42,095 nucleotides of DNA. Source: Craspedostauros australis. Its lineage: Eukaryota. The translations under genes and the position numbers were made by a program. Under the pieces are notes generated by a model that did not search any database, had not been told where the DNA came from, and saw nothing but the letters and a program-made list of their open reading frames with translations. Below are positions 33,239-34,188 of this stretch, in pieces. The stretch covers positions 1-42,095 of the forward strand of contig JALAGF010003894.1 in assembly GCA_030167865.1 (NCBI GenBank). Reading direction: 5' to 3'. Within the stretch, counting starts at the first letter, position 1. Every line of letters begins with the position of its first letter.

Positions 33239-33499
33239 ATGATCCGCCGCCTCGCCATCCAGCTCCAATCCAAGCTCTCCGTCCGCGGAATTGCCGCCAA
33301 GAAGTCCACCAAGGCAACCTCGTCCGGCGTTGCCATGATGTCCGCGTCTCCTTGCTTCGCGTCGTCTTCCAAAGCCGCAACAGCATCCACCATGCCTGCG
33401 CTTCCCAACGCCACTGCCGCCGCTCGGGCCTCGCCATCGTGGCAAGGATTCAACTCAACGCTCGATGGTCCTTCTTGCTGTGAGCTGACCGGTTTCTAG
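33239..33499 (+). CDS. 86-aa microprotein, mitochondrial-presequence-like, ending ...FNSTLDGPSCCELTGF
   Basis: A/C-rich 5' leader, strong C-ending codon bias (atc cgc cgc ctc gcc atc cag ctc caa tcc aag ctc tcc gtc cgc), double stop TAG TAA. R/K/S/A-rich, with no acidic residue until the last 11 aa. Confidence 0.7.
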   Translation: MIRRLAIQLQSKLSVRGIAAKKSTKATSSGVAMMSASPCFASSSKAATASTMPALPNATAAARASPSWQGFNSTLDGPSCCELTGF

Positions 33500-34188
33500 T
33501 AATCATCAAGAAGCCTAGTCAACACAACAACCACCAGGCATCGGATCAGGCATGCGGATGACGTGCCTGGCAACGCGAATCCCTCGCCAAGACCGCCACG
33601 AACCGGTCAGGATTCGCAACAACAACAGCAACACCCACCAACCAAGCCGCATTCTTGTGCGCGCATTGGCACTCTCCTTGCGTACGAATGCGCATTAGGA
33701 GACAGCGATGGAGAAGACTCGTGACGTCTCCACGGGGTGGAAGCATCACGATCTTCGGAAGATCCAATGGATGAAGGAGGCCGCAAGGCCAATACCATCC
33801 ACATCAACCACGCAGTGCATCCAGTCGCCCTGCAGCGGGCATATGGTCGATGAAGAACATGCGTCAAGCGCTGCACTCTGCTTCAACGGCAAAAGCAGAA
33901 TGATGCCTCGAAAGAAAGGCAACCGACCAAGACAGCCTGCTGGTTGGTTCTCTAACAAGCCGAGCAGTCCTCATGAACCGATGCAGGCAATGATCAGCCG
34001 AGCCATCACAAATCAGCGCAGCGTAGCGGCAGCAACAAGAATCATCCTCGATCGCATTGAAGGTGTGTCACGGCGTACTCATTGCCACAGAGGATGCACC
34101 AGAGCCATCACTTGCTAGACCACGACCGGGGAATGGTGAGATGACACCATCATCCTCCACTCCCATAGCATTCGTCACTTCGCGAATG
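33486..34188 (+). ncRNA. Highly structured RNA segment (3' UTR or lncRNA) made of consecutive stem-loops
   Basis: At least 13 adjacent complementary arm pairs, found by eye, separated by A/C-rich linkers (listed in findings). Confidence 0.55.

Follow-up and report, generated by a model that had tools for sequence, protein, structure and literature searches.

Locally folded hairpin modules predicted in the 3' UTR of an orphan polyadenylated transcript of the diatom Craspedostauros australis

The window studied here is the whole analysed stretch of 42,095 nucleotides from Craspedostauros australis (assembly GCA_030167865.1, contig JALAGF010003894.1, positions 1 to 42,095). In it, a gap of 2.7 kb separates a 1030-aa ORF (29247-32339, + strand) from a gene with TPR repeats (35073-36161, + strand). 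From this gap an unspliced, polyadenylated RNA of ~1041 nt plus tail is transcribed (33188-34228, + strand), with a leader of 51 nt that holds no upstream AUG, an open reading frame of 86 codons (ORF86, 33239-33502, + strand) and a 3' UTR of 729 nt in which local inverted repeats follow one another. An initial annotation, made from the letters alone, had predicted a ~1-kb transcript running past the stop codons of this frame, and the RNA data agree with it. These data consist of a single assembled contig of a single run (record 2 of run X1, 1049 nt, word depth 56.9; the RNA label of the run is a guess), which proves neither a single molecule nor the 5' end, and which is colinear with 33188-34228 at 0 mismatches, gaps or joints. 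Its loose end behind 34228, AAAAAAAA, consists of eight untemplated A residues where the genome reads c-a-c-t. An intron behind GTGAGC at 33480 was considered and rejected, as the contig is colinear there. Run X1 contains 76% of the sampled words of 33100-34400. When 29000-38000 is divided into 30 bins, X1 contigs fall into 13 of them and form three blocks that correspond to the 3' parts of genes; because of this partial coverage we read X1 as cDNA and not as DNA. Two more runs of the same study, X2 and X3, stem from another organism; nothing in them aligned at 80% likeness, which is uninformative either way. A second record of the locus, a 1080-nt contig encoding a 136-aa ORF, is found in the protein collection.

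Two features were noted on either side of the transcript. Upstream, at 32809-32883 and hence ~300-380 nt ahead of the first covered transcript base, a composite motif occurs twice at a spacing of 46 nt, with CCACGTG (G-box/E-box-like) followed after 9-10 nt by CG(T/A)TTTGCAATTG. The motif is a candidate promoter element for factors of the bZIP or bHLH type. Downstream, an X1 contig over the TPR gene (35700-36952) extends ~790 nt past the stop codon at 36161 and has no poly(A) end; it represents either another long 3' UTR or a merger with RNA of the gene that converges on it from the - strand (ORF 37215-38435).

ORF86 begins at the first AUG of the transcript, carries an A at position -3 and ends in the tandem stop codons TAG TAA. 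Its codon log-odds score, trained on nine long ORFs of the window, is 0.213 with a GC3 of 0.70, while the other two frames score -0.31 and -0.30. On this per-codon scale the mean is 0.256 for chunks of real genes and -0.09 for spurious ORFs of at least 70 codons, whose 95th percentile lies at 0.212. The length of the frame is not significant: when the transcript was shuffled 2000 times, 283 of the shuffles had a first-ATG ORF of at least 86 codons. The encoded peptide is basic and of low complexity, rich in S, A and T, with acidic residues only within the last 13 positions; it resembles either a targeting presequence or a frame that arose de novo from C-rich DNA. A search of 5.8 billion clustered proteins retrieved only the peptide itself, and one of 1.84 billion representatives the peptide itself and one low-complexity match (E 1e-4) that falls on 17 stretches of a 1435-aa protein. 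There was no Pfam match, 0 of 596 pattern matches in metagenome contigs and 0 of 40 in viral contigs were confirmed, and the best score in the protein atlas was 0.88, under the lead threshold of 0.9. With a codon score at the 95th percentile of spurious ORFs, an unremarkable length and no homologue in these collections, the frame which the initial annotation took for a microprotein ORF may not be one. We see about even odds that the 86-aa peptide is made.

Other frames of the locus were weighed as well. The 136-codon ORF further downstream (33708-34118, + strand) is probably spurious as a gene: its codon score is low (-0.062), 598 of 2000 shuffles have a longest ORF of at least 136 codons, Pfam gives no match, and its search returned only itself in the protein collection and nothing in viral contigs. 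The 73 in-frame codons that follow TAG-TAA were considered as a readthrough extension, which was rejected on account of the two stops and a codon score of -0.086, and so was a longer ORF from the ATG at 32996, which lies outside the contig and scores -0.072. As a separate observation, the frame of ORF86 is open beyond its stops (33503-33724) and also upstream to 32900, both extensions with non-coding-like scores. These open extensions could be chance in T-poor sequence or the trace of a formerly longer frame.

It might be possible that the transcript is a long non-coding RNA in which ORF86 is untranslated or irrelevant and the structured part serves as a trans-acting scaffold or regulator. ORF lengths as in shuffles would be expected from such an RNA, and the orphan status of ORF86 with its low 'recognition' in the protein atlas is consistent with it. 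The word depth of the transcript exceeds that of its neighbours in X1 (56.9 vs 17 and 41), although this is a weak measure. Diatoms are moreover reported to express many intergenic lncRNAs; the portion of the Phaeodactylum study available to us gives 1,510 lincRNAs (PMC7445176). Like those, as far as this portion describes them, the present transcript is intergenic, polyadenylated and lineage-specific and lies between two protein genes; it differs from them in that its first AUG opens a frame with the codon usage of a gene, and in how exceptionally dense its local hairpins are. In the literature covered, parts of papers included, we found no report of such hairpin-dense structure in diatom lncRNAs. 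However, the gene-like codon score and GC3 are specific to the frame of ORF86, which is moreover the first AUG in good context and closes with tandem stops, and no target or partner of a regulatory RNA is in evidence. A purely non-coding role strikes us as rather unlikely.

The TPR gene has 366 relatives, and the named ones are all diatoms, with Fistulifera solaris best (56% identity), followed by Cylindrotheca, Amphora, Mayamaea and Bacillariaceae. By these matches the source is a raphid pennate diatom to which no sequenced species is close. Synteny was searched in 80 metagenome loci with TPR orthologues, comprising 363 kb and showing 27-52% identity over the best segment. It was not conserved at these loci: tblastn (E ≤0.01) gave no relative of ORF86, of the 136-codon ORF, of the upstream 1030-aa gene or of the next downstream ORFs, and the nucleotide comparison gave only chance matches of 21-29 nt (E 0.007-0.026). 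The proposal to collect orthologous loci via the upstream peptide yielded none in proteins, metagenome contigs or viral contigs, and the closest available relatives stand at ~50% protein identity in the neighbouring TPR gene.

We then come to the sequence behind the stop codons, for which the initial annotation had claimed ~700 nt of back-to-back RNA hairpins. The stems it listed are all present, as a check of the sequence and a search for perfect stems confirmed. The inverted-repeat count recovered CCAGGCA at 33534, GCGAATCC at 33575, CGCATTC at 33648, GGAGAC at 33698, GATCTT at 33750, TGGATG at 33768, TGCAGCG at 33831, TCTGCTT at 33877, CATCCTC at 34043 and CATTCG at 34169; the 5-bp stems and gggaatgg/ccactccc, which has one mismatch, can be seen in the sequence. 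Folded as a whole, the 703 nt reach z -4.92 (+ strand) and -3.26 (- strand); for either strand, 0 of 20 dinucleotide shuffles did as well. The excess is not evenly spread. Windows of 200 nt on the + strand gave z -3.3 (from 33501), -5.05 (33601) and -3.8 (33701), and values of ~0 from 33901 on. For 33500-33900 the folding z was -3.91 (0 of 100 shuffles). An energy-free count of perfect stems (inverted repeats with arms of at least 6 nt and loops of 3-45) found 14 stems of at least 6 bp in this interval vs 2.86 ± 1.69 in shuffles, a roughly fivefold enrichment, and 6 stems of at least 7 bp vs 0.73 (0 of 500 shuffles for either count). Stems are not enriched in 33900-34228 (4 vs 2.43 expected; 119 of 500 shuffles reach 4), nor in 33188-33500 (2 vs 2.04 in shuffles), and the coding sequence shows no excess.

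The same picture emerges against the background of the window, for which 420 non-overlapping 100-nt windows of the 42 kb were folded on both strands (mean z -0.14 on + and -0.10 on -, sd 1.10 and 1.07). The interval 33713-33812 is the most extreme of the 420 on both strands (z -4.87 on +, -6.41 on -), and no 400-nt run of the + strand has a lower mean z than the one from 33513 (-2.28; background -0.14, sd 0.60). The excess starts ~35-50 nt past the stop codons and lies entirely within the transcribed interval. The hairpin cluster is real, expressed and statistically robust, and it measures ~400 nt, not 700. What holds up against both the shuffles and the whole-window controls is 33534-33941, to which a weaker domain at 34113-34222 (z -2.2) can be added; the hairpin said to enclose the stop codons and the stretch 33942-34112 are not above chance.

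The further claim that nothing comparable occurs in the other 3' regions of the window is nearly right, the exception being the gene ending at 21897, whose mean z over 4 windows on the + strand, -2.11, is almost as low. Four domains lie here in the 3' end of a 1294-aa ORF (stop 21897) and the start of its 3' region (21611-21991, + strand). Their z ranges from -2.1 to -3.4, and three of them are far stronger on + than on - (e.g. -2.20 vs +0.40). They make up the second-lowest 400-nt run of the window, and one of them (21825-21924) spans the stop codon of the ORF. The sole other 400-nt windows with 14 stems lie at 13101-13600 and consist of (CT)n/(GA)n low complexity; at 13180-13260 a (CT)n run is followed by a near-complementary GA-rich run, and this low-complexity palindrome accounts for the peak in stem count.

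The anatomy of the zone was derived from a local partition-function fold in which a pair could span at most 120 nt, and each domain was compared with 200 shuffles. The predicted fold of the first ~440 nt of the 3' UTR resembles beads on a string: no pair spans more than ~110 nt, and the modules are joined by unpaired linkers that are A/C-rich and G/U-poor. The A/C linkers of the initial annotation match the base composition of the hairpin zone (A 0.30, C 0.30, G 0.25, T 0.15). Its remark that the stems are unrelated in sequence and form no tandem repeat is likewise supported, as we see separate modules with unpaired linkers, and neither one long palindrome nor a repeat family. Six modules, H1 to H6, have z between -2.6 and -4.1 and mean pair probabilities of 0.76-0.96. 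Ahead of them, the domain with the stop-codon hairpin (33463-33543, + strand) contains its stem, but with z -1.42 (17 of 200 shuffles as good) it does not rise above chance. H1 is a hairpin at 33547-33569 (z -2.59, 1/200) with an alternative outer stem, ccaggca 33534/tgcctgg 33564, and it holds a 13-nt tandem duplication (33535-33559; period 12, 2.0 copies, 13-nt consensus unit). H2 (33575-33617) has 13 bp, made up of an 8-bp lower stem, an 8-nt bulge and a 5-bp upper stem, with a pair probability of 0.96 and z -3.27 (2/200; - strand -1.95). It is followed by the hairpins H3 (33642-33669; z -2.90, 2/200; - strand -0.91) and H4 (33673-33702; 12 bp, probability 0.95, z -4.08, 0/200; - strand -3.20). 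H5 is a 99-nt junction domain (33707-33805; 35 bp, probability 0.93, z -4.07, 0/200; - strand -4.77), in which a closing stem embraces three hairpins: one of 44 nt and ~18 bp, a minimal one of 3 bp, and a third that contains a 5x5 internal loop and is topped by a GCAA tetraloop (GNRA). The multibranch domain H6 (33834-33941; 31 bp, probability 0.93, z -2.64, 2/200; - strand -2.92) holds the hairpins tctgctt/aagcaga and tgcct/aggca. Behind it, 33942-34112 has no excess structure (z between -0.5 and +1.9) and no domain in the centroid fold, and just before the poly(A) site follows the weaker domain H7 (34113-34222; z -2.18, 5/200; - strand -3.97). All modules are given for the + strand. Control domains delimited likewise in the leader and the coding sequence gave z -0.11, -0.13 and -0.47, and hence the choice of boundaries does not produce the module signal.

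No known RNA family accounts for these modules, as the initial annotation had suspected: Rfam 15 gave 0 matches at gathering thresholds in the whole window and 0 at E ≤5 in 32800-34900, a scope that included riboswitches, SECIS elements, rRNA and intron fragments, snoRNAs, RNase P/MRP and telomerase RNA. A search for tRNA-like elements found 0. As regards a transposable element or repeat, blastn found no second copy in the 42 kb, and no long flanking direct or inverted repeats and no Pfam domain were seen in the window. In a fungus, telomerase RNA is processed from the 3' UTR of an mRNA, and one may ask whether the present 3' UTR is the precursor or host of small RNAs (snoRNAs, miRNA-like RNAs) or of a larger housekeeping RNA such as telomerase RNA. 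Some words would suit this idea: GATGA occurs four times in the 3' UTR (five times in the whole transcript, once at the start codon), and ANANNA and ACA have 23 and 22 matches. The latter abound trivially in A/C-rich linkers, however, and therefore carry no information on H/ACA RNAs. A search for the box C (RUGAUGA) and box D (CUGA) consensus motifs found neither CUGA in 33500-34228 nor an exact UGAUGA; in the whole of 33188-34228 CTGA occurs once, at 33485, inside ORF86. Compared with the ~50-70-nt hairpins of box H/ACA RNAs, H1-H4 measure 23-43 nt, the internal loop of H2 is asymmetric (8 nt against 1 nt), and the modules are hairpins of 23-44 nt that show no two-sided pseudouridylation pockets in the predicted fold. 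A stem of ~21 bp, as in miRNA-like or hairpin siRNA precursors, was not found: the longest helix, in the 44-nt hairpin of H5, has ~18 bp with bulges, which is short for Dicer, and the others have 8-13 bp. As to a telomerase template, no permutation of the repeat plus 2 nt was found for TTAGGG, TTTAGGG, TTGGGG, TTAGG or TTTTAGGG, though the repeat of this organism may differ from all five. We regard a precursor of this kind as very improbable.

A far more serious rival is a neutral by-product. According to this explanation, short near-perfect inverted repeats arose at the DNA level, for example through local inverted duplications, template switching or the decay of a palindromic insertion, and it is by chance that an orphan transcript, young and evolving fast, contains them in its 3' part; the RNA may fold, but it would fold without effect. 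The comparison of strands is ambiguous. H1-H4 are stronger on the + strand, which speaks against this rival, whereas for H5-H7, as for the 100-nt window at 33713, the untranscribed strand does as well or better. Stems are nearly all Watson-Crick, with 6 G-U pairs among the 110 pairs of H1-H6. A strong excess on the - strand together with so few G-U pairs fits DNA palindromes as well as selection at the RNA level, and the strand symmetry of the excess keeps a neutral origin alive. The tandem duplication in H1 points to a recent local rearrangement of DNA, many mutually exclusive alternative pairings reuse the words GGAGA/GAAGA and TCTCC/TCTTC, and relatives of either ORF or of the nucleotide sequence are missing from the collections searched. 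Nor is the density of stems without parallel: 105 of 3351 400-nt windows in contigs of other diatoms (~3%) hold at least 14 stems, although the highest-ranked of them are mostly of lower 3-mer entropy (4.65-5.6 vs 5.65 for the target). One hairpin-dense intergenic stretch upstream of the TPR orthologue in a contig of another diatom (L009 4540-5400) is packed with the repeated palindromic words AGTACT, ATGCAT, GAGCTC and CTAGAG; it was rejected as a counterpart, given these repeated words and the lack of any sequence relation to the present modules. Against a neutral origin, the stems are unrelated in sequence and make up distinct, well-delimited modules, strung in a chain whose linkers stay unpaired, the chain begins shortly past the stop codons and stays within the transcript, and no other high-complexity region of the 42 kb equals it. 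On balance we find a neutral origin doubtful, serious as it is. If it applied, the locus would be a caution that strong shuffle z-scores can stem from DNA-level palindromes, and that comparative or probing data are needed before such a region is labelled an RNA element.

The explanation we prefer, tentatively and with somewhat less than even confidence, is a lineage-specific, mRNA-like diatom transcript whose modular, structured 3' UTR acts in cis on the fate of its own RNA. It is favoured by the contig with its untemplated A residues, the folding excess of the six modules, the first AUG with an A at -3, the gene-like codon usage, the position of the chain inside the transcript and the + strand bias of H1-H4; the lack of an orthologue in our searches, the excess of H5-H7 on the - strand, the few G-U pairs, the dependence on one contig, the unremarkable ORF length and the orphan, low-complexity peptide count against it. 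In this model the modules would form in the ribosome-free 3' UTR, where they could compact a long untranslated region and/or dock RNA-binding proteins. Compaction or docking might then set the stability of the RNA, its surveillance by NMD or UPF1, or its translation. The effect may be stabilising or destabilising. Two studies illustrate this, each in the part of the text available to us. Eberle et al. (2008) describe for human cells that a poly(A) tail folded close to the stop codon suppresses NMD, and that the distance between the stop codon and poly(A)-bound PABP, which folding can change, governs NMD (PMC2689704). The diatom transcript shares the geometry, namely a long 3' UTR (729 nt) behind the stop in which folding would alter the distance from stop to poly(A); unlike the system described in that part of the study, which used engineered fold-backs in human cells, it is a predicted fold in a diatom. 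In a plant-virus system, May et al. (2018) link a lack of structure right behind the stop codon to NMD resistance, which structure placed there abolished (PMC6277124). As far as these parts go, the two studies point in opposite ways, and either sign of a 3' UTR effect is equally possible.

RNA-structure-based regulation is very little known in diatoms, although they are major marine primary producers. If the cis-acting 3' UTR proposed here is functional, it would offer a compact and experimentally tractable case: the transcript measures 1 kb, is unspliced and can be taken apart into six modules. The locus could then serve as a model for 3' UTR architecture or for control by dual-function RNAs, and for the origin of such elements in young orphan genes.

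The initial annotation had gone further and suggested a bifunctional transcript. By analogy, the closest functional match to this idea would be dual-function RNAs such as RNAIII and ENOD40, a class defined by a translated small ORF plus an activity of the RNA that does not depend on the peptide. RNAIII contains 14 hairpins. In the part of the source available, RNAIII of S. aureus is given as 514 nt with a 26-aa peptide, while for plant ENOD40 a product of 27 aa, a UTR of ~600 nt and a function at the RNA level are stated (PMC4870183). The likeness, within what that part describes, is that of a short ORF on a transcript of ~0.5-1 kb whose larger part is non-coding and, here by prediction, structured. 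In contrast to them, the diatom RNA has no relation in sequence or family, the structures of RNAIII and ENOD40 are conserved among relatives, and the diatom transcript is known from its sequence and predicted fold. A eukaryotic counterpart, in which an orphan microprotein mRNA would carry H1-H6, the 99-nt junction domain H5 with its GNRA-capped arm among them, as a modular, trans-acting structured RNA or as a new ligand- or protein-sensing element, appears to us a long shot. If true, one transcript would combine two separate functions.

A last observation concerns the other end of the window, where an 84-nt tandem array of 13.1 copies with 77% matches (982-2069; also read as periods of 168 and 330 nt) lies inside a 1769-aa open frame (1-5310). 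To judge from this array, the open frame is a predicted gene for a repeat-containing protein.
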